Origin: Raillietiella orientalis
Taxonomy: Eukaryota
Direction: 5' to 3'
DNA: 64,000 nucleotides
Assembly: GCA_036172245.1 (NCBI GenBank)
Contig: JAYWIR010000054.1
Location: 372,001 to 436,000, forward strand
Positions 3,823 to 62,069 of the stretch are shown piece after piece (the first letter of the stretch is position 1; every line of letters starts with the position of its first letter). The translations under genes were made by a program, and so were the position numbers. A model generated the notes under the pieces. It saw only the letters and a list, made by a program, of their open reading frames with translations, had not been told where the DNA came from and did not search any database.

Positions 3823-5230
3823 TCAACTTTCTTCTTCCGGAATACTGTACTTCGCATAGTTCCACTTCCACAGCATCAACGCTGTGTACATCGTTGCAAT
3901 GGCCGTGTCGTACATGTGGCCAGATATGTCTAAGCGCTCATAGAATTTTTCCTTGAATTGTTCCAGTCTGCAGTTTTGCTCCTCCAATAACTTGTAGACA
4001 TATTCGATAGTTGGTAAGCCTTTTTCATGACACAGTCTCGCTAGTATAAAGTCCATCCCGGGGATGAAGCGTACGTCGTCATTTGCTGTGGCCCTCCACA
4101 TGAAGCGATTGATAACGGGAGTGACTCCGAACTCGGAATTTTTAGATGAATCCAGATACAACAAAAGATGACCGTATACCATGTTCAACTCTTCGTGGAG
4201 CGAATGCAGGTCAGTAGGCACACGCATAAAATCGAACGAGCGAGACGTTGAAGGTGCGGAAATGAGTGCACTATCCGAATCAGTCCTTGCTATGACAGGA
4301 GCACTGACGGCTTCGGTTCTCACAGCTGGGAAGTCAAATTCAAGTGAACTTTCCGAATCAGTCCTTGCTGTGACGGGAGCACTGACGGCTTCGGTTCTCA
4401 CAGCTGGGAAGTCAAATTCAAGTGAACTATCCGAATCAGTCGTTGCTATGACGGGAGCACTGACGGCTTCGGTTCTCACAGCTGGAAAGTGAAATTCAAG
4501 TGTGCATGGAATTCTCGAGGAATAAGATGCTCGAGGTCTTAACATACCTGGAGATGGGCCCCTGAGGGATTTCACGAGTTTTAAAAGTTCAGCTTCATCG
4601 GGTAATAAATAATTGGCGTCATATCTTGCAGAAGAGGCGGATGTGTCGGGACTTGAAATTGAAAGAACTGGAAAACTCGGTGCTCTGGGAGACGGGAAAC
4701 GAGGTGCCGAGGTCGAAGATGCCTCTAGTGCAACAGCAGCTTCATCGACTCCTGCGACAGGTTTCGATCGACCAACTGGAAGACTCGGTGTTCTGGGAGT
4801 CGGTAGACGAGGTGCCGGGGTCGAAGATGCCTGTGGTTCATCGACAGCAAATTCATCTACTCCTGCGAAAGCAGCAGCATGTTCATCGACTCCTGCGACA
4901 GGTTTCGATCGACCAACTGGACGACTCGGTGTTCTGGGAGTCGGGAGACGAGGTGCCGGGGTCGAAGATGCCTGTGGTTCATCGACAGCAGGTTCATCGA
5001 CTCCTGCGAGAGGTTCCGCTTGAACAACTGGAGCACTGGGAAGCACAACTCCAACTCTACGCGGCCAAGGAACACAGACGCGACGAACGTTTGGAATTTC
5101 CTGCTTCTTCCCACTTTTCGTTCGTGGAGTGCGCTTGGAGATCAAAGGTTTACTGCGAGATCGTGGATTAACACAGGAAACATGCAACCAACTTTTCTTA
5201 CCGTTTTCCAGGGAGTTTAGCAGACTTCAT
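3823..5230 (-). CDS. BAF-like domain protein, subtype A (predicted exons 5230-5202, 5152-4548, 4481-3823; ~430 aa) with Pro/Ser-rich repetitive N-terminus
   Basis: ATG at 5230 (MKSAKLPGKR); CG|GTAAGA...CGCAG 49-nt intron joins in frame to the 454-aa ORF; second candidate intron CAG|GTATGT...TTTCCAG (66 nt). C-terminus FMWRATANDDVRFIPGMD...LCHEKGL...FKEKF...TMYTALMLW keeps BAF motif spacing. Confidence 0.75.
4265..4498. repeat. 78-bp tandem repeat x3 (26 aa, LEFDFPAVRTEAVSAPV...) inside gene A
   Basis: Units start at 4265, 4343 and 4421; single copy in the paralog at 32654-33653. Confidence 0.95.
4680..5010. repeat. 111/141-bp intragenic tandem repeats (AGVDE...ASSTPAPRLPTPRTPS) inside gene A
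   Basis: ttcatcgactcctgcga recurs at 4741, 4882 and 4993; 252 bp extra relative to the paralog. Confidence 0.93.
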
Positions 5231-6308
5231 AGTAAAAGTAAGCGGAAGAGGGAAGGAAGGAGGCACAAGCTATAGAGAAATGATGAATAAGGTTTCCAAG
5301 GAAACCATATAGTTGGTATTCCACGTGTTAGCTTGCTCACTGACCTTCGCTTCTACGATAGCAACGTTTCACCTCCGGTACAAGTTGCGCTAATAATGTG
5401 TAACCCGAGGGATTCCGAGGCCATCCAGTACGGCGTTGATGACTTTAAGGACGATGGCCAGGGTGGTCTCTATGCTAACAATGGAGTGGCGGTGCTGTCC
5501 TCTGGAAGAAGCGTGGCCCCATGCCATCTCAGGGAGGACAGCGTTACCCCTTTTTTAAGAACGTTTCGTTTGCTTCGACTGTGAAGTAGTATTCTGCAAT
5601 CTGCTTGAGGGCTGCGAGGACTTCCGTGAAGGGCGCAAGGGGTCCTGAGCTCTCTTGTGTTTTCAGGGTGCCGGCATATGTGGCGCCGGTTTCCTAGCTG
5701 GAAACCGGGCTTTCCTTTCGTTAGTCCCGGCATGTGAGCGAGCAGTACTCCCGGCCAACTTTCAGCGGCTCCGCAGCACGCGATCGGAGCACTTCGTAAG
5801 TTCAAGAACGGGATTTACATCAGTGCTAGGGTCAAGAGACGTACCTTGAAACAGGAGAACTCGTGCCGGATGTGCAATCTCTCCTTTCACATCTTCTGTT
5901 TTGCAGCCAGCCATTCTCCTCCGGCGCACGAACACCTACATCTGACGGAAGGAGACAGTTCCAACGTAGGGCGATCAGACGAGACCCGCGAGTGAGGTGA
6001 CCAAGTGCCGTCAACACGGCCAGAATGCCGAAAGATCCGTGATGGCGGTGGGCAGTGGGCTGCAGTCCTGCTCGCGAGTCGACCTCTTTGCCGCAACAGG
6101 GTATTCCGCTTCCGGGATCTTTGGCACCTGCCAACCGGAAACGTAGGAGGTATCCTGCGCGATCTAGGAGGCTCTGCTGCGGGACAGCTCGCTAAAGCCG
6201 CAGACGAGGTCACCTCTCGTGGAGAGCTTGCACTTCAAGGAAAACTCCTCAGCGTCCCACCGAAAGTGCCGGAGGTCTCCGCAGTGATGGTGAAGACCTG
6301 CCTTTCCT

Positions 6309-7245
6309 TTGACATACCTCAGTCTGTGTTGCTCCTGCCCAGGTTTTCTGGAGCAAGGACTGGCTCGTTGCCGCGACCCTGGTTCGACATTTGACGTAGG
6401 GCAACATACCGCAGCGTTCCCGAGAGATGCTCTGGCTCGATTGCCTACTGGGCCTTCTCCATCGGCCGCCCCTCCACCGATAGCCTCCAGTGTTGCAGAT
6501 CCTCTTTCGAAATCTGTCGCAGGGCTTCCTAAAGTTACTGTTGCACAACAGCCATCTTGGTCTACTCCATTGTCTGCTTCAGGACCAACGAAACCTTTTG
6601 TTCCAGTTGGCTTCTCAAAACCTGTTGCAGAACACGAACTATTGCCTTTCAAACTCATTGATACTGCTCCCAGGAAGATCTCTATTGAAGAACCCTATGG
6701 GAAATACCCTGAATACCTTAGATCACTTGAAAGGTATCCGAATTTACCAAAAATTGATGAATCCTTTGCAACGATTCGGACACCAAGAAAATCATCTCCT
6801 GCAACCTTAATGGGGCAATCATGGAGCATAAAATTACCATCCACTAGCGATTCATTCAGGTATCGACCTTATGCAACCATACAAAGAACCAAAATCTTTG
6901 CTGGTTTCCCCTTCACATCTGCTACTTTTAAAGATGAAGAAGTTTCCCAACCTCGAAACATCGCCATTAGACCCACACCCATAGGATATCCTTTGAAGAG
7001 CGAAAGTTGCTTTTATATGTCCGGGATATCCCCTGAGTGACCATTTCCAAGTGGAAATCTTCCAGCAACCTCTAAGGGCATTGGCATGTTGCAACCTGAA
7101 AGCGAAGCTGAAGACGCTTCGCTTTCACCTTCCAGTTGGCCTTACCGGCGGAGAACCTCACAGACATGTCCAAAGGAATTCGTCGGGAACGAGTGGGAAT
7201 CTCTAGATGGCCTCGGAAATGGAATCCAAGACATAAATGAATTGC
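6309..7245 (+). pseudogene. BAF-like family subtype B copy, frameshifted and 3'-truncated
   Basis: Clear homology to 25060-25580 (SWSIKLPS, FRYRPY, GYPLKSES, TSQTCPKEFVGNEWESLDGLG); homology stops at about 7245. Confidence 0.6.
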
Positions 7246-7279
7246 CTTTACTTTCTAGAGCACCCAGTGCTTCATCCAG

Positions 7280-7561
7280 GGCAAACGACGAGGGCGGCCA
7301 ACCTTTGAGGTGGGAGATTTCCTCAGCCACTGCAGGGGCCGAGAGATGCCTCGAATGCTGGTGAACGCGGCCATGCCTCGTTTCGGTGCGGAGGGTCCTC
7401 CGCTCTCACCCTGCACTGGAAATGTCCGAGGCTCTTCTGCCTCTCCTGCGCTGCGGTCATTTGCGTGCAACCAGCTGGGGCGTCTGGTTCTCGGGGGAAT
7501 TGCCATCCCGAACCGTCGCCGGCGTGGGACGGCGCAACCCCTCCCGCATCCCTCGTTGGAC
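7280..7561. repeat. Dispersed ~280-bp repeat with an inverted copy at ~37810-38090
   Basis: Mirrored translations such as GRLVLGGIAIPNRR / MAIPPRTRR; origin not identified. Confidence 0.85.
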
Positions 7562-9217: not shown

Positions 9218-9225
9218 TTTACATT

Positions 9226-9330: not shown

Positions 9331-12300
9331 CGGGTCGTCATGGTCACTGCTTCCTCGAAGGGAAGACATCGCTGGAGCAAGCGGGATCCCCCGTGCTCAC
9401 AAGGTCTCACTGGGTCATGGCGCGAACCCATGCGCCGCGCCTCTGCTTCTCGCTTGAACTACCCCCTTCCCTTCGTCGCCGCTTCCGGGAGCTCCAGTTC
9501 GTGGGCAAGCCGCAGATCTCGGCTTTCTTCCTGAGCGAGGGCAGCGATCCGCCCAAGCCGGTGCCCGCCTCGGAGTGGCCTCCGGCTGGAGGCCGCACAC
9601 GAAGAACCAGGCGGGTCTCTCTGACTACTAAGGAACCGTTTGCCTGGGGACAAACGAAGTTTTTCAGCACTGCCCACACCTCCTGGGTTTGCGGGCAACT
9701 CAGCAAGTCATGGGCGCGACCCCATGGATCCAGGAAGGCTGCTGAGGAAGGAGTTCCTTCCCCCAACGCTTGGTAGGAAACCTCGAAGGAACTCTCTTTC
9801 TCGTTTTCTCCTCAGAGACTCTCGGCAGAGGATCCTCTCCTGGAATTCCTCTCCTGAAGAACATCCCGAAGGGATGCTTACCGATTCCTCTGAAGGATCC
9901 CTCCCGAACGTTGCGGCGCAAGTCTCTTAGAGCTGATGCATGCATTTCTTTTCGGGAACGAGATCTCGACCACCGAGGGTTGCCTCCGCTAAGCAGAAGG
10001 GCACGCCTGAATTCCGCGGCGCAGCGAACGCAGTACGCCCGTTTCCAGGGAACCTCGCGTCAGCGACTTCCACGCTTCCATGCCTCTCGGAAGGGCAATC
10101 GGCAACCGGACTCTTCTGCGGCTTACGGCCGCCTCAGAAGACGAGGACGGAAAGAAACCATAGAGCAGGGTAGGGTGAAGAAGACGACGTGTCTTGGGAG
10201 AGGCGGAGGAGCGAACGCTGCCTCCGCTGGGAACGCGGGTGGCAGCGGAGTAAGTGCCGAGGAGACCGACAGGAAACGCGGCGAGGCCGATCGGCTTGCC
10301 ATACCGTACTTTTGAAGGATCCCAGAAAGCCCCAATATCACCAGAGCAACCATCAGGATACTGCCAGCAAGGTAGACTGGGTAGACTGGCCCTTTCCGGG
10401 ATTCTCAGCCATCGAAGCACTAATGCTTTGTGCACAATGATTCTCCTGGAAGTCGCAAGGTTGCCGACATATCCCTTCTTGGCATTTCTCCAGATTCCTC
10501 ACTTCCCCATGTAAACTCTTCCTCGTGGTCCGGGGGCCACCTGCTTCTTCCTCCCTCGTCTCTTTCTCCCTCTCCGAGTCTGGTATTTGACCACGAGCCA
10601 AGGACCGCCGCTTTCGAGTTGCAACTCTTCCCTGCGCTACCCTATCAGGATTTTCGCAGTGGCCAATAGCAACCCTGAGTTTCGCCTTTTCTTCTTCAGG
10701 GGACTCAGATACCAACTTCTTTCGGTAAGAAGGAGAATGCTGTCCCAAGTGTAATCTTTTGGTTCCATTTAGGCGTCCACCAACGCAGCTGACAAAAAGG
10801 CAACCCTTTCATCTCTTGTGCTGCGACTTCGACGAGTCTCCCGTGGAACCTGTTGAGTCGCTGCTCCCGTTGCAGGAGTCGGGAGAATTCGACTGGGAAG
10901 ATGGAGAAGACTCCACGATGCTTCCGAGACGACTGGCGCTCTTAGTGTGATGCTTTCAGAGGGCATCGAGAAGAGACGTCACACCGCTGCTGTCCCGACT
11001 ATCCATCTCCCGCTGGGGAAAGGAGACCTTGGGAAAAGCCTTTGGGATCAACAGGAAGAGCGCCGTCGGCGTGTCCGCGTGTGTTCGGCTCCACTTTTAC
11101 AAGCAGAGGGGAACCCCGAGGGTTCTTGATCCCTGAATGGACTCCAAAGGGTCAAAGTCCAATCCCGGCCAGTCAAGGGGGCATCCGGCTGCTACCACCG
11201 CCACCGCACTCGAACGGGCAGACCCGTGTCATCTTGCGGGAAAAACGAGAAACTCTGACAACCCACCCAACCCCATCTCTCGGTGTTGATCCTTTCCTTC
11301 CGTCGATCCTGCGACGCGCAGTGGTGCCGCGCGCGGAGACGCGCAGCCACCCGCTCCAAGCCACCCTCCCACTTGGCTAGAGGTCCACAGAGGGTGCCTT
11401 CCAAAATCACGGCACACCCCCATCCTTCCCCCCTCTTCAGACCAGCCTGCGAGGACTCAGCTCACACTCCGACCGCTCCACCACCGATGATTGCTCTTCG
11501 ACGCCCCCTGGGATGACGGCCGGGACTGTTCGACCCGGTGGCTTTCGGAGGCGCCGACGATCCCCCGATGGGATGTTCTCGAGCGCACCCGGAACCTCTG
11601 CATCCCGAAGGCTCCCAGCTGCCTGACGATCTGCGGATAGCAGTCCCCCCCTCCACCAAGACGGTCTCACCTGCAGGGGGAGAAGAGGACAGAAGGAGGA
11701 ACTCGCCTGCCGTCCTGCGCGGGCCGCGGAAGGCCGGACGGGAAGGCGAAGTTCCCGTCCCCTCCCGCTCCTGAGACGAGCGACCGGGAGGCGATCCAAA
11801 GATGGGATGGATTGTCCGGGATACTCTCCGGGGGAGCTTCGTCATTCCGCGAATCCCCGGCCTCCCTTCTCGGTGCCGGCAGACCACCATCGCTCTGGCT
11901 CCCCCGGAAACGAGGACCGCCACCGCGCCTCTGGCGGGGCGCCCCCCAGCGTTCGTGCTTCCGGAACGCCGGAGGCTGCTCCAGGGCACGGGGAACCCTG
12001 AAGGCCTCTCCGGAGAGAGGCATCTACGCCATCAGGCTAACCAGTGGCCGCCCGCCACGCGAGAACAGTTACGCCCCTTAGTGCCTGCACGCGAATCATG
12101 GAGGAACAGCCAGCATCCCTGGAGGAGCGAGGGGGAGAGATTGGGGCCCACGAGGGAGCCTTTGAATGCGGCGTGTGGGCAGGCAGGTCCCAAGCCAGGG
12201 ACCTTCTCGTCCGACTCAGGCCCTCGAGAATCCATAGGAAATACGCCGGATGGGTCCGTCCCGTTCCCTATTTGCTTCTACATGCTGCCTGCTCGGCCTC

Positions 12301-12739
12301 CACTCCTTCCTTGGCCATGCCCTTGCGAGGGCAGCCCCACGAGCCGGACCCTTCTCCATCTGCGGTTTCACTTTCATTTCCAACAAACAGCCCGGCAGTC
12401 CGTGACGGAAAGGTCGCGCCGGGACGCTCGTTCTAGGAACGGGAAGGGACAGGATCGCTTCCTTTTCCCATCGTGAACTGCGCGGCCCGCACAGGATGGC
12501 CGGAGAGGCCCTCCTTCTTCCCCCTCCCCCCCGCAGGTCGGGGCCAGGGTGTCTCCTTGGTTATAGGGAGCGTATCTGGTTATCGGGAAGTATCGAAACG
12601 GCTCCCCTGGGGTAGGGTCGTCTCGATACTTCCCTGACGCGGTGCCCTCTCTCCGCCTCACAGTCTGCCGTACGAAGGCAGCGGTTGCGGCGGGAGAAAG
12701 GGCGCTGAAGGTCGTCCACTAGCACGGAGAGGGCCTCGG

Positions 12740-13440
12740 AGAAAAGTCTCCGCAATGCCCCTAGGACAGCACGATGCCCTTGCGGGGGCGGTGAAGATCC
12801 TCGTTTTCCGCACCTGCAGCGCAGCTCGGCACGACGCCTTCCGGGAAGGTCGACACGTGTGCGGCGTGTCGGTACGTGGGAGGGAGAGGCGGCAGCTCCA
12901 ACCCCGCGCCGGCTCCCGCTTGCTGCTAAACGCCTGAGGGAAAACTTCCCTCGACCCCTGCTGCCCTCCTCCTGTCCCGGTCACCGGGAGTCGAGCAGCG
13001 GTCGCGTTGCTCGAGGAATTCTTGCACCGGCTGCGCCGCGGAGCGGATTCCGGAGGTCGTTCCCGTAGGCCGCTGCGTGGACAGCAGCACCGCGATGTGC
13101 CCTCCTTCTTGCGGTCCGGTCGCCACTTCCCTCCCAGGCGCCGGAACCGTTTCCAGGGTACCAGATGTTCCGCTCTCCGGAAGCAGCTACCCGCAGTCTG
13201 GAGCGCCATCCGTCTCCATCCCGTCATGAAGCACTGCGCAGCCCCGCAGGTTCGCCTCCAATTCCCCGTTGCTACGAGACGGGATGCAGGACTGAGAGCT
13301 CTCTCTGCGAAGACTTGCAGCTCCCGGCTTGGGCTGGAGCGGCCTTGGCGCTAGCCCTGCTCGCTCCCGAAATCCCCTGGGACGCGCGGCGGCGGCGCCA
13401 ACTCTCCGCTGCGAAAGAGCCCGGGGGCGCGCGCAGAGGC
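12740..13440 (+). mobile_element. Decayed RT region of an L1/Tx1-like element
   Basis: HVCGVSVRGR, LEEFLHRLRRGA and RRDAGL match HVYGVPVRRG, LEDFFELILRGA and RRDAGL of the intact ORF2 in the same order. Confidence 0.65.
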
Positions 13441-14050
13441 GGCGCATCTCCGCCCTACCGGAAGAGCATCACCTGTAGTTCTATTGCCCCTGCGCCCTGA
13501 ACCTCCGGGAGGGGAAGGCAGCGTGCGCGTGGATCCGCGTCCACGCGCGCGAGCATCCTGGGGTAGTCGTTCTGGAGGAGGCAGAAGGGAGCTGGAGTAA
13601 GAAGAACGGCGGCTGCCGACCCGCAGGGCAGAGGATGGCGCGCTCCTCCGTTTCAGGTGCGACGAGGTCTCCGAACGACAACCGGGAACGGACCAGCTGG
13701 TTGTGGCGCGGCGACACCCGGTGCCCTCCCCGAAAGCCTGCTCCGTCCGGCCATTCCGCCGCGGTCGCAAATCGTGACTCCTCCTCTCTGTCCGGACAGC
13801 TCCCTGCACTCCCTCCAGGTGGCAGCACGAAGAAGGCGTGGAAACTCCCACGCACCTGCTGCTGGGATGCGGTGCGCTTCGAGGAACTTCCTGGCGGCTG
13901 CTGAGCCCACGCGGGCGGCCTTGTGTTTGCCGTCTCAGCACGTGGTACCGAGCGCTGCGGGTTCCAATCCCGCCCAGGGGGACGACGCTGAAAACGGGGG
14001 AATGCGCCGTGGGCTTCGAGCTCCCCCCCACCCATGAAGTACGACGCTGG

Positions 14051-14780: not shown

Positions 14781-14783
14781 AAC

Positions 14784-17700: not shown

Positions 17701-17900
17701 TAAGGTTTCTCCTTGCGGTTCTTTTCCGCTTGATGACCAACTCATCCAGTTAACGCTTGAGAGCGTCATGGGCAGAGGTTTGCATCATGCTCAAGCGACT
17801 GTTTCCACAGGGCAAGGTGGAAGAGGTGTAGCGCAGCAGAAGCAGCAGAGCTCCCGAGAAAGGGGGTCCAGGCCCAACGCCCACGAAGAGTGGCTGCTGC
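14784..17900 (-). mobile_element. Decayed RLE-type non-LTR retrotransposon (NeSL/Utopia/R4-like) with poly(A) tail
   Basis: RT motifs AWIDF...SVPH, GVRQGCPLSGLLF, LAYADDV, GLQINPSKC, LAPWQK (16426-17238); ETPAHVICHC knuckle, RHSRVV and IVVGSLGTW endonuclease motifs (15257-15760); T-run at 14784-14806. Frameshifted; 5' boundary uncertain. Confidence 0.88.
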
Positions 17901-49974: not shown

Positions 49975-52900
49975 ATGTTCCAGCAGCAGCCCTCCGCTGT
50001 ACGCGGGGTCGGCAAATGAAGTCACTGCGAAAGTCCTTGGGATGAACTGGAAGAGGACCGTTGGCGCGTCAGAGTGTGCTGGCGGTTCTCCTGAGAGCTA
50101 CCTCGATTGCTGTGAAGACGGGCAAAGCTTCCGTTTTGCGTGGTTGCACAGCAGGGCTTCCGTGCACCGCAGGGCCCAGAATAGGCAATCCCCACTGTCC
50201 GAGAGTGCTTTCAAGCAGATGACGGCCATTGTAGATCGGACGGGTTCAAGACAGACGACAACAAGACGCCAGAGCTATGTTTCCAGGCGTCAAACAAGAG
50301 AGAAAGAACGCATCGCTGGCAGCGGACATCGTCCAAAGGAAGAAAACAGGATGAATAAGAGGGAACAGGCGACGAAGAAGTCAGTGAATAAGAAGGAGAT
50401 GGATTACGGGACTCCGGCACTCAATAAAGTCCGTCTTTCATGGCTTCTTCACCAGTTCTTCCAGATGGAGTCGCAGTCCAACGGAAAGAGGCCCGCTGTT
50501 CTTGGTGGCGCTCCACCTCGAAGTTTCGGGACGACACGATGCCTCTGGCGCAACTCAGGGTCGGGGAAGCACGAGGAGGGTTGCCGAGGGTGAGTCGGCA
50601 CCTCAGCGACTCTTCCGGAGGGCTTTCCGATAGAAGCAGGGCTACCCCCAGATGATCCCAAACATTGCAGAAAGAACACTGGAGCCCAGGAGAAGGTTCC
50701 GCAACCATTCACGTCGCCATGCCTGGCGCATTTCAAGGAAGGCGCTTCCTGTGCTCCGAAAAGGGCGGCGCCGATCGCCCGCGAAGTTTCCCCGTGCAAG
50801 GAGCAGCGACCTTTCACGTTGTTGCCAGAAGGGGGTGAGTACGGACGTCCGCGGGATTGGAAACGACCTCGTGCGGTCTCCGTCGCCAGATGCAACGGCG
50901 CCATCGCTTCCTAGCCGGCCGTGAGCGTCGGGACCTCGCGCGGGGGCCAACCTTCCGTGCCGCCGCTCACGGTCCTCCTCGAATTTCAACGTCACTCCAC
51001 CTCGAAAGGATCTGCTGCTGCTCCCTGTTCCCGGCGCCAGGATGCTGAGTCCCTCCGTCTTGCTCTCCGCCGCTCGCACGCGCTTCGGAGGCGAAAGGAA
51101 GCTCCTGCTGGAGGGCAGCAGCGGAGACGCTCCAGACGAGGCCCTGTCGCCTCGGCACGCGCGGAGGCATTCCTGCGGTCTGTCCTCTGGCACCAACTCG
51201 CGCTGCCCCCCACTCACGCCGCACCGAATGCCGCAACCTAGCAGCTCGTGCTGCTCGCATGCGTGGCAGGTCGAAGGATCTCTCGAGCGACACTCCCTGG
51301 GTGGACAGAGCGAGCCTACCCGGCCGCCACATCGAGGGATCAGCAGGGTTTTCGGAGTTGCCCGAAAGCGTTTTCTCACATACTGAATGCGGACAGCATG
51401 TACCCCAGGGTGCTTCCCACGCGTGCTCGTGCCTGCCTGGCACCAGAGGGAGTGCAGGTGACTCTGCGGAACTTCTGAAAGTTGCTCGGAGCAGCTCCCT
51501 CTTTGACCGGTCGACTCCGTCTCCGGAGCGAAGGTGATAGCCTAGAGTGCTCTTTCGCCTTCGCCTCAATTCACCAACAGCACGGTACGCGATGGAGAAC
51601 TCCATTTTCACTTCCAGACGGTCACTGCGTCCCTGCTTCCGTGAAGGACTTTGCCAGGTTGATGCCAAACTACTCCAGTCAAAGGAGGCATCGGTCTTCC
51701 AGCTTGCGCCGGCGCTGCTCCTAAATACGCCCATGAAGGTCATACATACGCATAACGCACCCATTCCTGGGTGAACACCCTCCCTGCAGTGAAATTCGAG
51801 CCCGCGACGCTTGGTGGTGCCACGCGTGCAGATCGAAACCACACGGACGCCAACGCCGGGTTTCATTCGGAAAAAGCGGATGCACTGGGGGATTCCTCTC
51901 GAACCACTCCTTCGATGGCTGGCGTCCTCCTCTGTGCAGTTTGAACGCGCGAGACGGGTGGAGTAAAGCCTTGAGGACGCATGTGCACCTTCTTCTCTCA
52001 ACGTTCCCACAGGCCATCCGGATCGTTCACTTTGCGTCCTCGCCAGATGTGGGCGCATCCGCAATGGAAAGCTTCCTGGAGAAAGCGCCGTTGCGAACGC
52101 CCCATTCGTACAACCGTGTCGAAACGTTGCACAGGCGGTGGTCAGTTCATAACGGCCGGTCACGTTCTTCTGCTACGGGTATCGCGTTTTCCTTCCCGTG
52201 TCCACGCGATTCCCGAAACCTCGCCGAATGGTTGTTGCGCTGCGACTAGAGAGACAGAGCCGACACTTGGAGGCGCTCGTTTCCTGGAACGGGAAGCGCA
52301 TTCCCAATAGACGGGAGGGGGGGATTGGATCTGCGCAGCCATCTTGGAATTGGGGCGCTTCCAGCAGGAGTCCGGCAACGCTCCTTCAGTGCGCTTCAGC
52401 GAGCGTTTGTCTTTCGCGCCTTTGACGTCGGCCGTTGCCCACTGCCTGGCCTCGCAGAAGTCCCCGATCTCCAACTCGTTGCGGAGAGCAATGAACCGAC
52501 TCGTTCTTGCTGCTTCTCAGAAACTGAAAGGAGGCAAACATCTCACGGAGAGCTCAATCAGAACGAGGAATCCACTGTCCGTTTATTGACCTTCGTGCGT
52601 CCTTGTCGTCCACAGCACTCGTTCAGCGCTCTCCCGGCGATCTTTCGAGAGGAATGAACGACGAACGGATGAAGATGAAGGATTGATCCTAATGGCACCC
52701 CAAGGATTTTAAAGACGCATCAAGCGAACTTCCGACTTTGCTCCCTGGTGGTGCAATTTTCCTGCAGTCAGAGCTGCTCCCGGTGGCTTCCCAAATGGCT
52801 GTTGTTGCCGGATGTCGCTGCAGTCACGAGCTGGTATCTCTGAAACAATCAGCGATTGGGCAAGCATGTGGTTTCGGACATTCTACGGAGGACACTAGAA

Positions 52901-54797
52901 TGAATCCTTCTGCGTGCATCTGTCAGGATCCTCTTCCATCGGGAATCCTGCTCGTCAAGCTGTGGAACGTGCCTGGAGCTCCCATCCACGGTTCACGTGG
53001 CACCCGGGCCATCGCAGTGCCTCCGCGAAGAGACGATTTGCGTCTCCAAAATGACATCACGGCATCATGAATAATACTGGGTCGCTATCCTCTTATACTC
53101 AACGCCTGTACCTTATGAATGTACATTCGCAAGAATGCATCCCGCTAGGTTGCACACTCCCGTGACCCATCGTTTTCGAGCCCGCGGCCTTTGACCGAAC
53201 GTTCCCGCAAGCGACCGAAGGCAGCACAATCCATGAAGAGAAGAGAATTTCCTGTAAGAGGGAGTGGCATACTTCCAGGAAAATAATTCCAGTTCCCGGT
53301 ATTCATCGCGACGTTGTAATTGGTCCACGATGTTGGGCGTGGAGTTTGCTCTGCATCGCGATGGAACTTCTTTTTATTCCGTTTTATTGGAGAGCCACCT
53401 GCGGAGACTGCCTGCACCCCTTGTGTTCACGGAAGGCAACCCATGGCACGGCGTAGGGTGCGAAAGAGCTCCCACAGCGCTGTGGCCGCACAGCGTCTCG
53501 CGCTCCAACGTTCAAACGACAAGACAACGACAGAGGTCAACCCACCGATGGATTCCCACATCCCCACCCACGTGGTGGGTGGGCATGCACACCGCGTGGT
53601 GAGCGCCGCAGTCCTCCCTGCCGAGGAAACCGACCTCGGCATGTTAAGAAGGAACGTCGGTGAATAACGCACTTGCAAAGATCGTTCGACGCGTCTCCAA
53701 GGAAAACTGATCGCAAGAGGTTGGTCAGAACTTGACACGAGCAGCAAATGGTGCCGAGCAATCACGTCATCTTCGCATCGTCTCCTTCTTTGGTGACAAT
53801 GACGATGATTGTCAGCATCCATTTCGCTGCAAAAATCTCACCAGCTTGATATTCCGGAACGCACGCTGCAGGAACCCTTCTTCCGGTCCATTACGAAGAG
53901 CTGCAGCGGCGGTGCCTCAGATGAAGACATGTTTTCACCTGCTTCCCCGAATCTGGGTGGCGACAGCGGCATGGTGTCGTCCCGAAACACCGAATAGGCG
54001 CTCCAGAAAGGAAACTATGCCTTTTTCTCTCGGCGACGAGGACTGCGTCTTCATCCGGAAGAATCGGTGAAGGAGCCAAGAAGGTTAGAATTCATTGAGC
54101 GCCGGAACTTCCCCACTTATCTCTTTCTTATTCGATGACTTCTGCATCGCCTCTTCTTTCTTATTCATACCCCTTTCCACCTTTGTCGGAAGTGTGTTGC
54201 CATTCTTCCTTGCTGTTTAGACTGTCGCGAACGTTTTCTGCAACCTTATGGTCGTCATAGGCTCAAGGATGGTTCGATCGAGAACGGTCAGCATCCGTTT
54301 GGAATCACCCTCGGGGGATGCAGCTTGCCTGTTCTTGCCCCTGCGGTAGACTGACTCGCTGACCTGGAACCACGCGAGACGCAATTCGCCGCAACGCAGA
54401 GAACGCCCTCATCGCCGACGGACGAGCGCTTGGGTGTAGTGCGAACAGACGCTGACACGCCGACAGCGCTCTTCCTGTTGATCCCAAAGGCTTTTCCCAA
54501 GGTCTCCTTTCCCCAGCGGGAGATGGATAGTCCGGACAGCAGCCGTGTGACGTCTCTTCTCGATGCCCTCTGAAGGCTTCACACTAAGAGCGTCAGTCGT
54601 TTCGGAAGCCCCGTGGAGTCCTTTCTGAGGTCTTCCCCGTTGCAGGAAGACAGGGACCAATGCGAAGAAGGTGATTGGCCAGGGATTGCGTGCCGTTACA
54701 GCTGAATCATGTAGCAACCTGAGAGCGTGGCCCCCGATGTGGTTTTAGATTTGCTTTTCTATTTCTTTGAGCAGTAAAGGAGTCGCTTCTTTATAGT

Positions 54798-55771
54798 TCA
54801 CAGCTCTGTCAGGCGTGGTTCCCTCAGTAAAGCTATCCATCTCTTCAGTGTTTTCCATTGGCAAGCTGCAAATTCTTTTCCTGTCGGGAGATGGTGGCGA
54901 GTTCTACGATGAACAGCTTCCTATTCTTCGTCTGATGATTGTTCGTAAATGAATGCCGACATAGATGAATTGTGAGATGACAATTCATTTATGTCTTGGA
55001 TTCCTTTTCCGAGGCCATCTAGAGATTCCCACTCGTTCCCGACAAATTCCTTTGGATATGTCTGTGAGGTTCCGCGCCGGTAGGGCCGTCTGGAAGGTGA
55101 AAAGCGAAACGTCCTCAGCTTCGCTTTCAGGTTGCAACATGCCAATGCCCTTAGAGGTTGCTGGAAGATTTCCACTTGGAAATGGTCACTCAGAGGGTAT
55201 CCCGGACTTTCGCTCTTCAAAGGATATCCTATGGGTGTGGGTCTAATGAGATGTCACGAGGTTCGAAAACTTCTTCACCTTTGGAAGAAGTGGGTGTGGT
55301 GAAGAAACCACAAAAGATTTCACTCCTTCGTGTGCTTACATAAGGTCGATACCTGAATGTGGACGGTAATCGTATGCTCCATGATTCCTTCATTGAGCTT
55401 GCCGGAGATGATGTTCTTGCTGCAAAGCATTCAGCAGTTTCTGGTAAATCCGGTAACATTTCAAGTGATCTAAGGTAGTCAGGGTGTTTTCCAAAGGTTT
55501 CTGTAATAGAGAGCTCACTGGGAATGGCATGGCTTTTGAAGAATGGGATGTAATCGGCATAGTGGGGTGTTCTGCAGAAGCGATCGGACTGCGTTCTGTA
55601 GGCAAATTTAAATGTGAAGACGCACTGGGAGCATAGGACCTGAGAATTGCAGTGGGACCTGCTGCGGCATCTCCGCTAAGAGTTGCTTTGCAATCACTAT
55701 GGTATGGTGGATTAATATAGGAGGTTTGCAACTGCCTTTCCTTACCTTGGTCCAGCTTTTCGGTGAGACAT
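54798..55771 (-). pseudogene. Subtype B pseudogene, mirror copy
   Basis: Reverse complement of 24790-25763. Confidence 0.6.
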
Positions 55772-56565
55772 CGCGGCAAAAGTAGGAGGAAGAAAGAAGG
55801 AAACGCTAGCGATAAAGCAGTAATGAAGAAGGTCTTTTTGGAAACCACGCATTTGGTTTGCAAAGTGTCCTCTTGGATGATGGAGTTCGCCTTTACGACA
55901 GCAACGCCTTTCCACGTGCGCATGTGGCGCCGCATATGTGCTGCCAAAGGGATTCCGACGCCATCATGAACGGCGATGATGATGTGGTGGAGGACGGCCA
56001 GAGTGCCTTCTCTGCTTATCGCCGAGGGACGGAGCTGTCCTTGGTAAGCAGCGTCGCCTCCTGGCGCTTCGGGAAGGAGAGCATTTCGTTGCTTCCCGCG
56101 GGCTGGCTGTGTCCTGGACGCTGCGTGAGGGCTGCGGGGACCTCGGTGAACAGTAACGGGGAGGACTGTCTGCTGGTGTGGAAGGAGCGGATTTTCATAC
56201 CAACGGCTTTCCTAACTGCCAGTCGCGTTCTCCTTCCCTGAGCCCCAGCTCCTGAGCACGCAGTACTCCCGGCCCAAGGCTCGGTGGCTTCTCAGGACGC
56301 GGGCGGAGGGAGCGCTTCTCATGGGCATGAGAAGCGACGATGTGATTGACATGTGCGCTGGTATCAAGAAAGAAGCCTTGATGCACGGGAACCTCCGTCG
56401 TCACGGATTGACCCCGTTCACGTCGCGGCAACCTCAGGCACCGACGCACTCCTGCACTATCGAAACTCCCACTGCAAACGACGGAGTGATCTGCAGGGAA
56501 TTTCCGGCACACCTGATGCGCCAAGGGCCCTATGCCTATTCACACCAAAAGCTTTCTTAATTGAT

Positions 56566-57406
56566 TTATTGATTCGTTCTTCGTTTTTTCAAATTTTTGA
56601 CGAGATGTGCTCTGTAATCTCGGGTATTAGTTCGCGGAAGTCTTTTCATTGTGTGGTACCACTTCCACAACATCAAAGCTGTATACATGGTTTTGACGAT
56701 CGTAAGGAAATTCGTGTGCACTCTCAGGTCCTCCAGGGACTCCTCGAACAAAATCGAATCGAAAAGATTTTCCTCCAGTAATGTGTACAAGTGTCCGATG
56801 GTCTCATAGCCCTTGTCTCTGAGCATCTGGCAAAATCTTGAGTCGATTCCTGGAATACTTCTTACGGTTAGGTTAGGAAATGCCTGTTCCTTGAAGTCGT
56901 GCAATCTGGACACCACTATGTCTGGCTTGAATGGAGGTGGGAGAAGCAACGTCGACGCGTGCCTCTGTATGCTATCTATTCTTCTTGCGCAGCGTACTAT
57001 TTCAACGCTGTCATCCTCCACGAATGCTTCCGGAAGGGTGGCTTGGGATGCCAGCCTCATGGGAGGAGGTGTAGCCAGGACCATATCAACATGAGATCTC
57101 GAAGGAGGAGGATTATGAATTCTGATTGAAGGGTTCCCTTGGACTAAGTGTGGGACCAAGGATGCTCCGGGTGACGGTTTAACGACTCTAGGGGTCGGAT
57201 CATCGGGTTCAAAGTGGAGCGCACGCCGTACTGGAGAGCCACGATGGTGTACACCACGATGGGGTACATCACGATGAGTAGGACTGGATAGAACACTGGG
57301 TGCACCACGAGTTCCAGGGGGTGAAGAATAATCAAGAGCACTATGGAATGGTGGATTAGCATCGGACATTCGCACAGACCCTTTCATACCGTCTTCGGGG
57401 ACCCAT
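56566..57406 (-). CDS. BAF-like domain protein subtype D, mirror copy
   Basis: Reverse complement of 23155-23995; a few N-terminal substitutions, BAF-like domain identical in translation. Confidence 0.82.
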
Positions 57407-60400
57407 AGCTGCCAAGGTGAGTAAGTAAGAGGAAGGAGGAAGCGAACAGTTCCGATAGAGCAGTGCTGAAGATCGTCTCCTTGGAAACCAAAACAATTGA
57501 GTCCTCCGACTGAGCACTTAAACAACGGCGCACACCCTTCCCAAAGCAACGACTTTCCCTGTGCTCAAACAGCACTGCATCTATGCTGCTGGAGGACTCA
57601 GGAGCCGATCCAGAAGGCGACGATGATGACGTGAGGAGAAAAAGGATATGGCACCGTAGGGGGAGGATAATCCCTCTCCTCATCGTGTGAGGACTGGGCT
57701 GTGCTACGATATTAGCAACGTCAACTGCTGCCACTTCGGGGTAAACATTTTCCTTCTGCACTAATCCGTCCATCGGTCATCAGCACGGACGGGAAGCCGG
57801 GTGCAAAAAATGCAGGCAATGAAGATAGAACGAGAGAGGTCTCGCAACGACGCCCAGGTGCAGCATCCCGCACAGTCCCGCTTTCGAAGGCGGCGGTGCG
57901 GCGGTGCCTGAGGTTGCTGCCGCGACATAAACGCAGATCCTGACGCCGTCGGGTAGCTAGCGAGCACGCGGGAGCCGGAAACCCTGGTGGTCGCACGAAC
58001 GGCATCCGCACGCGAGGACCAGGAGCTGCTGTGGACACCGACAGCCTGCTGCGAACACGCTTTCCGGTCCGCTCCCTGCCTCGACACAACCGGAGTGACG
58101 TCATTTTCAGCAGGGTGGCGTGCCAATGCGGTGATCGGAGGACGCGCCTTTGGGAGAGGGGAATACGGTGTTAGGCGACACACACATGCTCCAGGAAGAC
58201 CTACGATAGGCGTAGGCACGGACATCAGGCGGGAAGAGGAGACCCTCCGTGTTCTCACTGGCTCGAGTGCAGGGTACAGCGGAGACGACGACAGCCAGGC
58301 TGCGAAGACGATGGTCAACGCCTTGCTCGGTGGCTGTGCACCCGGGCGCGCTGCTTCCCAAAAAACAGGGAAACAAAATCCGACGCTCGTCCGCACGATC
58401 CCCGACGGCTTGTGCGCCTCGCCACACGACGCCTTTTTATCGCTGATGACAAGTCCGAGGGAGCTGGACTCCGTGCCAGCGGGCCGTCGGCGGAAGGCGA
58501 GGAGTAAGGATTTCCAGACCTGTCCGTAGAGGCACGTGGCAACCTGTCGAAAGCGAGCTCTGAGCGATCACCTCTCCCTGACGAATGAGCCTGTCGCCCG
58601 ATATGCGACGCCGATTGACCTGCGTTCCTTGCGAGGATGCAAAGCACTCACGGGGGAGACGGGATTCCACGGGGGATATGTCCAAAGAGCAGTGACGGTT
58701 CGGCATGCTGGGTGAGTTGGACGCCTGTCCGCATGTTGGCGCCAGCATCCGTGAACCAGCATCGCACCCTCCTCTCTTAAGCAGCCGACCCTCGCACACG
58801 CCGCAGAGCCCGCCTAACCACCTCGCGCCTAAGATGGCTTTCCCCAATCGACGGAGCTGGAGACCGAAATCATACCCACACCCTATCCTTCGAGGCAGCG
58901 ACCGAGCAGGAAAGTCTCTCCTTATTCTGTGGGTGCGATTCGCCGGCGATCCTTAGGTGCAACGACGCGCAGAGCGATGCGCACCAGAGGTGAACCCCAC
59001 TTTCCACACTTGACCTCGCGCTGCACGTGAAGTAGCTCCGCACGACAAGCAACGCCCTCGGTCGACCTAGTGTCCTCCCGATGACCTCAGAGAGAAGGAA
59101 ACCGTGGTGCGCCCACGCAGCGCTTCCTGCGAACGAGAACGGTCTTTCGGAAGACGGAGCGCGGTCCCTACTCACTCCTCTTGCAATTTGCTCCGTGCTC
59201 CTCCTGCATGTCACCAGCGATGTCGAACGAAGACGGCAGCCTGGATCCAGGAGCGTGAACCGTGAACTGCTCAGATGAGAGCGCTCCCCAGACCTCGTCC
59301 GAGTATCGCGTAGCAGTGCGTCGCCTGGAAGCGGGCCCTCAACGGAAGTGCCAACACGAAAAGACTCGGTTTCCAGGAGGCAGAGCGCTTCCCCGAACGA
59401 GAAAACTTCTGCTTCGTGCAGCCGTCAGTGTGACGCGAGGCATTCCCTTTCCGGAATGCTGAGCAACGCAGAGAAGGACGCTTGCGCGACCCGCCAGCCT
59501 CGATCTGGGACGTGAATGTTGGGAGCAACCCTTTTAACACTCAGAGACTTGAAGCAACACCTCCTCATCACCCGCAGGCGATATCTTCCCAGGCATCTCC
59601 TACTTGCTAACTATCGACGGTGCATTTCTTCAGCTGGTGACAAGAGCGTCTTTGCTGCCCTGGTTCACATTTCAGCATTCGTCCTACCCTTCGTGGCAAC
59701 GGAAATCGAGGGCCAACGCATACCGAGCTGCGTGGTGCACATCTCACGCGTGAATGCGCAGGAAGGTGGAAGGGCGTGCGCGTGCGACAAACCGCAGGAA
59801 GGCGAGGCAGCTCATGATGGCCCCTGCGCAACGGGGACCGCTGCTTCCGCGTGAGACGGAGCAGTCCGTTTGAAACGTCGACGAGATGCAGGAAACCCCC
59901 GACTCCCTGTGTTTGCTTCTGATCCAATGGACTGGGTGATGCCTCGAAGAAGCGAAATCGTGTTCATCCCAGCAGAACAGAGTGCTGCAGGGCGGGAGAG
60001 ACCACTGAAGAGATCCCACCTGCTGGTTTTCTCTTGTATGGAGACGTCTTTCTTGACCCCAGCGCTCGTAGCAATCGCCGATGTGGACGGAGGAGCGCTT
60101 AGGGTCCCTCATGAGAAGCATGGTGTTTGCTGCCAAAGGGGTAGACACGTACGCACTTCACTTTCAATTTTAAGCGGTGCTCCCGTTTCTTCCCCTAGGA
60201 GTGGTTTCGCTCCCTTCCTATGAAGGCAACGAGCGTTGGAGCTTTTAAGGTGCAGGCACACGAGCTGGGCTTGAGGGAAAGAGACCGCGGTTTGCAGCCA
60301 GGAAACCAGCGCTTTCCATACCAGCGGATACAGAGGGCAAGAGAGCAGACCAGCCTCCAAGCCCTCCACCATGGTTCTCGTAGCCCTCACGCTACGTCCA

Positions 60401-60714
60401 GAACACTGCTGGCCTGTCAGAGGGAACGAAATGCTCTCTTCCCTCAGGTGGGAAGAGATGATGCTGCTCCCGAAGGAGAGCACCGCGCTCCCTTGACAAG
60501 CAGAGCGTGCACCCTGGCCGTCCTTCCCCACGTCGCTCTGGATGGCCATTGAATCCGCCCGGCCTCACACATTCAGCGCCCGATGAGCACGCGCAAAGAC
60601 GGGCGCCAGCATCCAAACGGACACTTGGAAAACCAAATGTGTGGTTTCCAAGACCTTCTCCATCATTGCTCTATTTAAAGTGTCTCCTTCCTTCATACGT
60701 CTACTTTTACCGTT

Positions 60715-62069
60715 ATGGCTTTTCGAAAGGCTGGACGAGGGTGAGTAAAGGCAGGTGCAAATCTCCTATATTAATCCTCCATCTTCCAGTAAAGCGTTAC
60801 CTGAGAAAAACTTGGAAAGTTTCATGCCATTGAGTCTCCCATGCCGCCCTAGAGGTACCACTCAACGCTCCCATCGAAGTGCATCTTCTTCCTCCAAGAG
60901 ATTACGCACTGAACGGAACGTACTGAAGGAATCCGCATTTCCACAGTTCACCTAAGAAATTGACTTTCCTTCCGTTGAGTCCTGAATTCCCTGAATCGAT
61001 TTCCTCAATCTCTGTCGAATCTCCTCCATCCACCGCTGAGAAAGAAAGAAGAAATGGCGCGAAGTTGCAAACCTCTTCTATTAATTCTCCATCTTCCAAT
61101 GAAGTCTCTCCAGCAGAACGCTTAAGAACTTCCGTTTCATTCAGTCCCCCACGCCGCTCTGGAAGGACCACTGAACGCCCCATCTCGAGGTACATTATCT
61201 TCATCCAATGGGATGAGTACTCCAAAAAAATCAAAAGAAATCCCTAGATTCCAGAGTTCACGTGAAAAGTTGTCCTTCGTTTCATCCTTACGTTCATCGA
61301 TGTCCCCAGCCTCTCTTCTCCAACAGCCGGTCCTTAGGATCCAAGAAAAAAAAGCGCCCAGGCCGGCCCCCAATCCATTACGCGTAAAATTCCATTCCAT
61401 CCCTCCAAATCCTCAGTCACCAAAGATGAAACAATTCGCAGTATTGTGCACTTTTCCGTACCTTTTCTCTCATCCTCCGAGGCTCAACAAGCTCCACATC
61501 CTGCTGAGCCTTCTTTCCCGTTACCTGCTCGGCATCCTTCGTGGTTAAGTGCTCCTGCTGCTGGTGCATCTACTGCAGAATCCCGTAGCTTGATCTCCAG
61601 TACATGCGACTTCCTACGCTATCCTACACAGTGCGCATTGTGTTCTGACATACCCAACGACCCCTGGAGCAATGTGCTCCGTGAGATGTCCAGGAAGGCT
61701 TCTGATTATTATGGCGTCCTCAATCCACCGTTTGAGGACAGTACTGAAGTGGAGAAGAAAAGCATTCGAAGAAAACCAGATAGCACATTCGTGATTGAAG
61801 ACGCTCCTCCCGACGCAATTCCAATTGAGTTGGCGCACTCGAAACAACCAGAATTTAAGCGCGAAGAGTCCATTGGATCCAGAAAATTTTAAAAATGAAT
61901 CCATGGAGGCAAAGCAAGACGTTGCATCCGCCAGCTGCTGACAGGATCAGGAGCTGCAGCATCGATGTGGTTATCATCCGAGAGATAAATCGCTTTAGAA
62001 ATGGATATTGACATCCCGCTGGCGATGTGCACCACAAGAAAGAGCCTCTGGCACTGGTCAGAAAATTGA
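60715..62069 (+). pseudogene. Subtype C pseudogene, mirror copy
   Basis: ATG 60715, intron 60741-60789 (GTGAGT...TTCCAG, 49 nt); reverse complement of 18492-19846. Confidence 0.55.

Follow-up and report, generated by a model that had tools for sequence, protein, structure and literature searches.

The window analysed here, a 64,000-nt stretch of the Raillietiella orientalis genome, contains a family of related loci that are distributed over two large palindromes, P1 and P2 (Table 1). The family unit consists of a conserved 5′ segment of about 0.35–0.5 kb, a short exon carrying the ATG and, beyond a 49-nt intron, a single large exon. A profile of the 3′ segment detected 12 copies in the window with nhmmer, and the corresponding profile of the 5′ segment found nine full copies and two short pieces. 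A full 5′ end includes a putative promoter, the ATG exon and the conserved 49-nt intron, and the gene flanks are common to the six unique loci. In A, A′, D, X and Y, exon 1 is 17–29 nt long (the ATG plus 14–26 nt) and is followed by a GT…AG intron whose length is exactly 49 nt, while locus E keeps the 49-nt intron despite replacement of the ATG by TTG. According to this splice model, which was derived from the sequence alone, removal of the intron would bring the ATG into frame with the long open reading frame (ORF) in A and D. This GC-rich window has many ORFs of 250–330 aa, and ORF length by itself is therefore no proof.

Table 1. Palindrome arms, genes and gene fragments, in window coordinates.
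Feature	Position	Strand	Description
P1 left arm	16561–31356		Contains X, D, Y and E
P1 right arm	49205–64000		Contains E2 (5′-truncated), Y2, D2 and X2
P2 left arm	1–6114		Contains gene A
P2 right arm	31770–37475		Contains A′
Gene A	3826–5230	−	Exon 1 5230–5202, 49-nt intron 5201–5153, exon 2 5152–3826; intact, 452 aa
Gene A, BAF-like domain	about 4200–3826	−	From domain profile
Gene A′	32654–33650	+	Exon 1 32654–32682, intron 32683–32731, BAF-like domain ORF 33093–33650
Gene D	23155–23992	+	Exon 1 23155–23171, intron 23172–23220, exon 2 23221–23992; intact, 263 aa
Gene D, BAF-fold core	about 23639–23911	+	From model and fold matches
Gene D2	56569–57406	−	Mirror of D; intact, 263 aa
Locus E	30427–31771	−	A-type pseudogene; TTG for ATG
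Locus E2	49205–50134	+	Mirror of E minus 5′ part
Locus X	18133–20051	−	Family 5′ segment, ATG exon, 49-nt intron, 3′ segment
Locus X2	60510–62428	+	Mirror of X
Locus Y	24556–26172	+	Family 5′ and 3′ segments; interior akin to Z ORFs
Locus Y2	54389–56005	−	Mirror of Y
Solo 3′ fragment	39249–39824	−	95.5% identity to 3′ part of Y
Solo 3′-segment fragment	10909–11087	+	From 3′ segment profile

When the window was searched with a family HMM, the BAF-like domain was detectable in six of the 1573 six-frame ORFs. A, A′, D and D2 scored E ≤ 5e-55, E/E2 followed at 1.4e-6, and the best of the remaining ORFs reached E 2.7. The first-pass annotation had listed about 12 loci of BAF-like genes in five subtypes. 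The number 12 holds for the shared 3′ flanks, but the domain itself is restricted to six loci in three subtypes (A/A′, two copies of D and two copies of E). The read-through translations of X and Y, as well as the Z ORFs, scored no better than 200 shuffles of each with either the family HMM or a BAF HMM. In X, reading ends after 63 aa, the distal ORF has three in-frame stops and the BAF-like domain is undetectable; in Y, reading ends after 110 aa and the domain is likewise undetectable. The domain of locus E lies in shifted frames (three HSPs in two frames) and its upstream region is cut at 31765, while E2 lacks the 5′ part because the inner boundary of P1 cuts through the locus. Four genes had been described as intact after splicing. 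This is the case for A, D and D2, each with one 49-nt intron, but A′ has an in-frame TGA (33090–33092), and the only candidate for its removal is a 66-nt in-frame intron at 33085–33150. Thus, only three of the 12 loci are certainly intact, and at least seven are broken or fragmentary. The D and D2 products differ at four residues, none of which is in the BAF-like domain.

The long disordered N-termini proposed earlier were borne out as a prediction. In a structure prediction of the D exon-2 product, residues 1–118 had pLDDT values below 50 and no secondary structure, compared to 83–95 for the domain, and the N-terminal parts consist to 60–68% of P, S, G, R, Q, E, K, T and A. Gene A carries tandem repeats.

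The A and A′ copies differ sharply in the domain, with 61 of 417 nt changed (85% identity), compared to 29 of 3825 nt (99.2% identity) in the 3′ flank. Synonymous sites also differed from the flank in this comparison (Fisher p 1e-6). The differences are evenly spread over the three codon positions (25/17/19), and the dN/dS ratio (1.85) does not depart significantly from 1 (p 0.085), a pattern that relaxed constraint fits as well as positive selection. The earlier description of the family as fast-evolving is therefore apt for the island of divergence on the domain, but does not extend to a significant dN/dS above 1. We considered the possibility that the family members are relics that are not expressed and are decaying, in a region rich in repeats and poor in genes, and that a few frames are still intact for no other reason than that duplication was recent. 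The many broken copies, the TGA in A′, and a dN/dS that is not below 1, with changes even over codon positions, are all consistent with decay, and a Pfam search of the 155 other ORFs of at least 105 aa yielded only reverse transcriptase. However, the A and D types share only 33% identity and are too divergent for most nucleotide alignment, yet both have kept their reading frames open, 30 alignment columns are invariant between them, and a common fold is predicted for them with confidence (see below); this argues for long purifying selection on the domain. Furthermore, the start codon, splice donor, splice acceptor and intron length are conserved in five of the six unique loci. We thus consider it unlikely, although worth bearing in mind, that the family is made up of relics.

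Canonical BAF (BANF1) is normally a conserved, low-copy protein of about 89 aa that bridges dsDNA, re-forms the nuclear envelope and keeps foreign DNA in check. It has a LEM and chromatin role, and its G-I-G hairpin, part of a (pseudo) helix-hairpin-helix (HhH), contacts DNA. BAF is a stand-alone protein without an N-terminal extension, whereas the window family is multi-copy and divergent, and its products (263 aa for D, 452 aa for A) have the domain at the C-terminus, preceded by a region of about 135–330 residues that is predicted to be disordered. The window family is also missed by the Pfam BAF model, PF02961: hmmscan gave no row for this model with A at E ≤ 1, or with A′, D and D2 at E ≤ 10, and none of the four reached its gathering threshold. 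Sequence searches of the PDB at E ≤ 10 returned no BAF chain, either with the family profile or with D alone; for D, the best (non-significant) row was the HhH region of DNA polymerase IV.

When the family profile was run against 1,835,955,588 proteins, there was a single match at E ≤ 0.001, a 237-aa protein denoted P0003 (E 5.4e-5). P0003 is a clear Pfam BAF member (PF02961 SAM_BAF, E 1.1e-43). It resembles the window proteins in having an acidic or low-complexity leader ahead of its BAF domains, but has two such domains in tandem, where the window proteins have one. BLASTP aligned D with P0003 at E 3e-6, without gaps over 63 residues, from RLHDF to LRV, and the gap-free motif pattern previously noted in D is therefore present, in alignment with a Pfam-verified BAF protein. 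The elements common to BAF and the window family are the F-x9-V … P-G-I hairpin, L-x3-G-[FY] and D-x3-F-x-E-x-L. The family and P0003 were matched by hhalign with 84.9% probability, and an HMM of the two P0003 domains, applied to the 1573 window ORFs, gave D and D2 the top ranks, albeit weakly (E 0.058). In a comparison of Atlas features, ranks 1 and 3 were taken by BAF clusters with a score of 0.84, which we used only as a lead. These matches suggest a sequence-detectable homology to accepted BAF proteins that is weak but specific. In the hairpin, however, both P0003 domains have P-G-I-G, whereas the window proteins have P-G-I-D (D), P-G-M-D (A) or P-G-M-H (A′). Since the second glycine of the G-I-G is replaced by Asp or His, canonical DNA binding is doubtful.

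The domain was modeled with AlphaFold2 from an alignment of four sequences, two of which are identical, and the pLDDT of the resulting prediction was 78.9 overall, at least 90 for 56 of the 125 residues and about 90 in the core. In the predicted model, about 89 residues form a compact BAF fold made up entirely of helices. In a Foldseek search, as had been proposed in the first-pass annotation, the best seven rows were all human BAF (TM 0.77–0.79 by target, rmsd 2.1–2.4, 82–87 columns), with E-values that were all above 0.001 (0.046–0.19). A VIA search of 48,161 chains also placed BAF first, with Z 11.2 and rmsd 2.0 over 87 of 88 residues, so that the predicted fold matches nearly the whole of the 88–89-residue protein. 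BAF was the sole chain at Z ≥ 8, and the runner-up reached 7.0. The annotation had left the BAF assignment to be decided by a profile or structural match as opposed to a generic HhH or SAM hit; the Pfam profile did not provide one, but the predicted structure clearly did (Z 11.2 against at most 6.5 for generic SAM and HhH chains).

An improbable alternative is that the domain is a generic HhH or SAM-like module that has converged on a BAF-like arrangement and is not derived from BAF. This would explain why neither Pfam nor the PDB sequence searches matched BAF, and why D alone aligned, if non-significantly, with the HhH of a Y-family polymerase; VIA also placed numerous SAM and HhH chains at Z of about 4–6.5. 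However, BAF stands alone at its Z-score and coverage, and the only significant relative in the search of 1.84 billion proteins belongs to the BAF family, although HhH proteins are far more common. We conclude that the window genes constitute a real, remote BAF-fold paralog family, whose proteins are probably remote BAF homologues.

The giant inverted repeats in which the genes had been reported to lie were confirmed as two palindromes. The P1 arms align over 14,796 nt with 63 substitutions and no indels (99.57% identity); this length is a minimum (at least 14.8 kb), because the right arm runs into the end of the window. The P1 spacer is 17,848 nt of unique sequence. An intact LINE lies inside the spacer, and the LINE is at most 35% identical to any match found. 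The P2 arms are about 6 kb long, the left one being cut by the window start, so that both palindromes are truncated by the window ends. They are 95–97% identical and align in two blocks, 1–4346 with 33130–37475 (97.4%) and 4915–6114 with 31770–32966 (95.3%), separated by a stretch in which tandem-repeat copy number is unequal between the arms. P1 and P2 are interleaved: the P2 right arm sits within the P1 spacer, and a distance of 5 nt separates it from the 5′ end of E. The P1 differences are clustered, with 40 of the 63 in 18955–23525, 21 in 27995–29729 and none in 23526–27994, and this blockwise identity between arms appears consistent with gene conversion, as do the A/A′ flanks, whose 99.2% identity encloses a domain of 85%. 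The amplification and birth-and-death evolution claimed for the family are supported by the conversion-like blocks together with the broken copies.

False inverted duplication during assembly, which would overstate the copy number, is very unlikely to have produced the palindromes. In its favour, none of the 63 P1 differences and none of the 29 differences in the P2 3′ flank is an indel, and both palindromes extend into the window ends. However, the 63 differences do exist and are grouped in blocks, the long spacers (17.8 kb) consist of unique sequence with an intact LINE inside, and a simple fold-back artefact does not give a layout in which two palindromes interlock. Equally hard to credit is that each unit is the cargo of a mobile element, or viral in origin, and was spread by transposition instead of segmental duplication, since, despite conserved unit ends, variable interiors and LINE sequences nearby, the 5′ homology endpoints vary between pairs and the units have an intron, and we found no transposase or integrase by Pfam in the window ORFs, no relatives of the family in viral contigs and no viral structural match to the domain model.

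Vertebrate BAF-L (BANF2) is not known to carry a long N-terminal extension or to form a palindrome-borne, multi-copy family. By analogy, as a divergent BAF paralogue it may provide a precedent for a BAF fold with an altered role. BAF-L is described as binding histones H3/H4 as well as protamine 1, though not DNA, and as most abundant in testis (PMC8877947), and a cichlid Banf2 variant is described as linked to female determination (PMC8268354). Mammalian sex-chromosome palindromes have arms of more than 99% identity, a unique spacer, multi-copy arm genes and arm-to-arm gene conversion (PMC8327919, PMC13616518). The palindromes described here are similar in their large inverted repeats, arm identity (above 99% for P1), unique spacer, multi-copy arm genes and blockwise identity, but differ in that the arms span 6–15 kb as seen in the window, and in that the host, judged by the low identity of the LINE to any match found, is not a well-sampled vertebrate.

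Taken together, we moderately favor the interpretation that this is a lineage-restricted eukaryotic gene family of probable remote BAF homologues that was amplified in palindromes by inverted duplication. Inverted segmental duplication would have multiplied the genes into the two interleaved palindromes, and the arms would then be homogenized in blocks, in a gene conversion pattern, while single copies decay by birth and death. The proteins are likely to be nuclear, because their ends are basic and NLS-like, and the BAF-fold domain would be a module that binds chromatin, DNA or a partner, acting perhaps like BAF itself, or like BAF-L. Its variable surface (helices 1–4, including the hairpin) would evolve fast, whereas the nearly invariant last helix (YTALMLWKW) would preserve a common interaction.

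A more far-reaching and doubtful proposal is that a BAF-derived family was recruited into genetic conflict, for instance in germline chromatin or meiotic drive, or in defence against retroelements or foreign DNA. Selection would then keep the face of the BAF fold that binds DNA or a partner diverse between the arms against conversion, the nearly invariant C-terminal helix would keep the common interaction, and the disordered basic tails would give affinity for chromatin. Such germline, drive and defence roles are speculation.

Pfam does not recognize the family, and a single weak BAF match is its only relative among 1.84 billion representative proteins, so that standard annotation would call these genes orphans. 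If the proposed origin is true, the BAF fold can be redeployed in the manner of HP1, histone or protamine paralogues in fast-evolving chromatin systems, and the sharp island of divergence in arms that are 99% identical would present a case for gene conversion versus diversifying selection within a palindrome.

The protein census, made with tblastn and an HMM from three domain sequences against 1573 six-frame ORFs of at least 25 aa, was sharply bounded: the family HMM matched 6 of the 1573 ORFs, and the next ORF scored only E 2.7. The DNA comparison drew a wider circle. A 5' segment of ≈0.35–0.5 kb is common to six unique loci (A, A', D, E, X and Y), and a 3' segment of ≈0.16 kb, directly past the stop codon, is common to the same six. 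Segment profiles run over the window found nine full 5' copies plus two short pieces, and 12 copies of the 3' segment, belonging to A, A', D, D2, E, E2, X, X2, Y, Y2 and two solo fragments. The first-pass annotation had described about 12 BAF-like loci in five subtypes. That number holds for the family flanks, with their 12 3' copies, but not for the BAF-like domain, which is detectable at six loci only and in three of the subtypes.

Positions of family loci, palindrome arms and neighboring features in the window
Feature	Position	Strand	Description
A ORF	3826-5226	minus	family HMM match
D ORF	22997-23992	plus	family HMM match; mirror copy D2 also matches
E/E2 frame-shifted pair	~30.6-31.0 kb; 49.6-50.0 kb	minus; plus	family HMM match
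A' ORF	33093-33650	plus	family HMM match
Solo 3' fragments	10.9-11.1 kb; 39.2-39.8 kb		3'-segment profile
X, second partial 5'-segment piece	19454-19512; 61049-61107	minus; plus	intron-like part of the 5' segment
Z ORFs	6294-7364	plus	related to Y interior
Y interior	24886-25640	plus	related to Z
P1 arms	16561-31356; 49205-64000		14,796 nt each; spacer 17,848 nt
P2 arms	1-6114; 31770-37475		97.4% identity over 1-4346, 95.3% over 4915-6114
LINE ORF	45365-48976	plus	uninterrupted, 1203 codons
RVT_1 fragment	16429-17253	minus	E 7e-23; mirrored at window end

The loci X and Y and the Z ORFs were compared, with stops read through as X, to the family HMM, to an HMM of true BAF domains, and to both combined. 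Their scores were no better than those of 200 shuffles each, and Pfam had no match in any of them, so that X, Y and Z were rejected as BAF-like. By eye, Y and Z appear to contain a hairpin-like S-L-D-G-L-G-K-G-I, and X and Y a degenerate last helix, but the former is statistically unsupported and the latter gained no support in the shuffle test. Half of the copies claimed earlier are thus without demonstrable BAF-likeness. The Z ORFs and the interior of Y are related to each other (82% identity, 6668–7244 against 25038–25580); neither has a Pfam match or a homologue, and a word-index search with the Z ORF was empty. The Z-like ORFs of Y are flanked by the family 5' and 3' segments, which makes Y a candidate chimera or a highly diverged family member. 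In X, the intron-like stretch of the 5' segment recurs in incomplete form ≈300 nt further downstream.

Five of the six unique loci share a common layout in the aligned 5' segments, for which, as in all family gene models, splice sites were placed from sequence alone. The ATG and 14–26 further nucleotides make up an exon 1 of 17–29 nt, followed by an intron with an invariant GGTA donor, a branch-like TTAAT or CTAAT motif, and a YAG acceptor exactly 49 nt past the donor. E has kept the intron, but has TTG at the ATG position. With the 49 nt removed, the ATG is in frame with the long ORF in A (452 aa) and in D and D2 (263 aa). In A', translation runs for 129 aa to a TGA (33090–33092), beyond which the domain ORF continues in the same frame; in X and Y, translation ends after 63 and 110 aa, respectively. 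The A' TGA sits 6 nt within a candidate in-frame intron of 66 nt, GTATTT...TTTTCCAG, whose counterpart in A reads GTATGT...CTTTCCAG. If this candidate intron is real, A' would be intact. Of the four intact copies proposed earlier, A, D and D2 therefore stand, while A' depends on the 66-nt intron, and counting it in this way was probably how the number four arose. In addition to the lost start codon, E has its domain in two frames over three HSPs and is cut upstream at 31765; E2 has no 5' part at all, because the inner boundary of P1 (31356) falls within the locus. The D intron (23172–23220) is open in the exon-2 frame and contains an in-frame ATG (23174), so that an unspliced transcript could also encode the domain. 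The peptide NPPFHS, seen in several raw ORFs, is the translated 3' end of the 49-nt intron.

Assignment of the domain to BAF found no backing in Pfam, where hmmscan of A, A', D and D2 returned no PF02961 match for any of the four. A sequence search of the PDB with the family profile and with D alone likewise gave no BAF chain at E ≤ 10. The best matches, DNA ligase 4 (E 0.02) and DNA polymerase IV (E 0.33), were judged to be chance or generic helix-hairpin-helix (HhH) matches; the alignment of D alone to the helix-hairpin-helix of DNA polymerase IV was non-significant.

The predicted structure gave a different picture. An AlphaFold2 model of the D domain, built from a four-row family alignment, had a mean pLDDT of 78.9, with 56 of 125 residues at 90 or above. 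In a Foldseek search of the PDB, the best seven matches were all human BAF (TM-score by target 0.77–0.79, rmsd 2.1–2.4, 82–87 aligned columns, 18–21% identity), with E-values of only 0.046–0.19. BAF also ranked first in an independent all-against-all comparison of structures that covered 48,161 representative chains, with Z 11.2, rmsd 2.0, and 87 of its 88 residues aligned. BAF was the sole chain with Z ≥ 8; the next reached 7.0, and SAM and HhH domains 4.2–6.5. The BAF-likeness proposed in the first-pass annotation was thus supported by the predicted structure of D in both searches.

A single sequence relative was found. When the family profile was run against 1,835,955,588 representative proteins, the sole protein at E ≤ 0.001 was P0003 (E 5.4e-5), a 237-aa protein with two tandem BAF domains that itself matches PF02961 at E 1.1e-43. 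D alone aligns to P0003 at E 3e-6, gap-free across 63 residues from RLHDF to LRV, an alignment that reproduces most of the gap-free BAF motif pattern previously described for D. The hhalign probability for the link between the family and P0003 was 84.9%. In the reverse direction, an HMM of the two P0003 domains alone ranked D and D2 top among the window ORFs, although weakly (E 0.058), and a word-index search with one P0003 BAF domain was empty. Language-model features placed BAF clusters at ranks 1 and 3 (score 0.84), which we take as a lead only. The hairpin, a defining feature, is altered: it reads G-I-D in D, G-M-D in A and G-M-H in A', compared to G-I-G in P0003. We conclude that the domain is predicted to fold like BAF and most likely represents a distant BAF homologue beyond the reach of the Pfam model.

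The family lies in two interlocking palindromes: the right arm of P2 is within the P1 spacer, and the left arm of P1 is within the P2 spacer. P1 is cut at the window end and P2 at the window start, so the real arms may extend further. The P1 arms differ at 63 positions with zero indels (99.57% identity), and the P2 arms are broken where tandem repeats of 78 and 141 nt vary in copy number. The P1 differences are unevenly distributed, with 1 in 16561–18954, 40 in 18955–23525, 0 in 23526–27994, 21 in 27995–29729, and 1 in 29730–31356. Arm-to-arm conversion tracts would give such a blockwise pattern. The lack of indels among the 63 P1 differences and the 29 in the P2 3' flank is unusual for diverging duplicates, and could reflect conversion, assembly polishing or chance. 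Three boundaries fall within ≈400 nt (31356–31770): the P1 left arm has its inner end inside E at 31356, the 5' end of E is cut at 31765, and the P2 right arm begins at 31770, so that E and A' abut head to head. Run X1, the sole DNA run with parts of the region (0.06 share of words), yielded a few exact contigs of 151–201 nt at a depth of 2–4 on 16001–36000; the loose ends of other contigs were AT-rich, unlike the window, as would be seen if the source contributed a small share to a mixed sample.

Five sites separate D from D2: exon 1 and the intron hold one each, and the N-terminal coding region holds three. The four in coding sequence all change the protein, and the domain is free of them. 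The most conspicuous feature, however, concerns P2 and the A/A' pair. Downstream of the stop codon, the P2 arms are 99.2% identical over 3825 nt (29 differences), and upstream they are 94–100% identical, whereas the 139 codons of the domain region itself are only 85.4% identical (61 of 417 nt differ). This island of divergence ends within ≈25 nt of the stop codon. Even at its synonymous sites, divergence far exceeds that of the flank (8 of 87 against 29 of 3825; Fisher p 1e-6). The 53 non-synonymous and 8 synonymous changes correspond to a Nei–Gojobori dN of 0.181 and dS of 0.098; the ratio of 1.85 is not significantly above 1 (binomial p 0.085). The last helix was spared, with 2 changes in 31 residues between A and A' (ERLDISGH.YDTAIAT.YTALMLWKWNYAK).

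Two readings of the island were considered. The coding part may have escaped the conversion that homogenized the flanks, perhaps because differing copies are favored; or else a paralogue beyond the window may have donated sequence to one of the two copies. A divergence 13-fold above the flank is more than relaxed constraint on a dead A' could produce by itself. A recent overwrite of A or A' by a third paralogue from within the window was rejected, because polarization with E assigns 20 changes to A and 28 to A' and leaves 13 unresolved, so that both lineages have changed, and because E stands at an equal distance from the two copies (62% and 60%). RIP-like mutation was rejected on the balance of transitions and transversions (29:32); the changes are also evenly spread over codon positions (25/17/19).

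The surrounding sequence is eukaryotic, with an intact LINE ORF and genes with short GT-AG introns. The LINE lies in the P1 spacer, ≈230 nt short of the right arm, and encodes an endonuclease, a reverse transcriptase and a zinc-finger-like C-terminus. The most similar sequences, at only 22–35% identity, are scattered among eukaryotes, and the Atlas listed no taxa for the LINE. When Pfam was run on 155 other ORFs of 105 aa or more (99 + 56), it identified reverse transcriptase only, in one fragment at the outer edge of the P1 arm as visible in the window. The block at 12001–14000 has the highest GC content of the window (65.6% against 50–60% elsewhere) and many overlapping ORFs with no Pfam match. 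Searches for relatives of the family gave 329 pattern matches in metagenome contigs and 52 in viral contigs, none of which was confirmed, and BFVD gave no viral structural match for the family. These results and the low identity of the LINE to anything found imply that the source organism is poorly represented in the collections. Rfam and tRNA scans of the window were empty.

In a model of the D exon-2 product (257 residues), residues 1–118 had pLDDT below 50 and no secondary structure, while the domain blocks reached 83–95. Residues that promote disorder, above all Pro, Ser, Ala and Arg, account for 68% of the N-terminal part in A and 60% in D, and A contains tandem repeats. Strongly basic stretches are found at the extreme N-terminus of A and in the C-terminal tail of D. 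These ends may act like nuclear-localization signals and would probably carry the proteins into the nucleus, where the predicted BAF-fold domain may bind chromatin, DNA or partner proteins and the disordered tails may add low-specificity contacts. With Asp or His in the hairpin, phosphate contacts of the canonical BAF type are doubtful. An uncontrolled complex prediction for two copies of the D domain (best score 0.19, mark 0.32) speaks neither for nor against a homodimer.

Compared to BAF (BANF1), the family has the same predicted fold, but lies outside the Pfam model and has a long extension and many copies. BAF-L (BANF2) is a divergent BAF paralogue with an altered role; it is reported to be most abundant in testis, not to bind DNA, and to interact with histones H3/H4 and protamine 1 (PMC8877947). 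A BAF-L-like mode would be at least as likely for the family proteins as DNA bridging. The genomic architecture is that of the ampliconic families in mammalian sex-chromosome palindromes. No description of an amplified, long-tailed BAF-like family was found among the open-access papers searched. The structural and genomic facts of the family are solid and unusual for BAF. That the last helix hardly varies between subtypes suggests a single interaction common to them, and the variability of helices 1–4 suggests a changing one.
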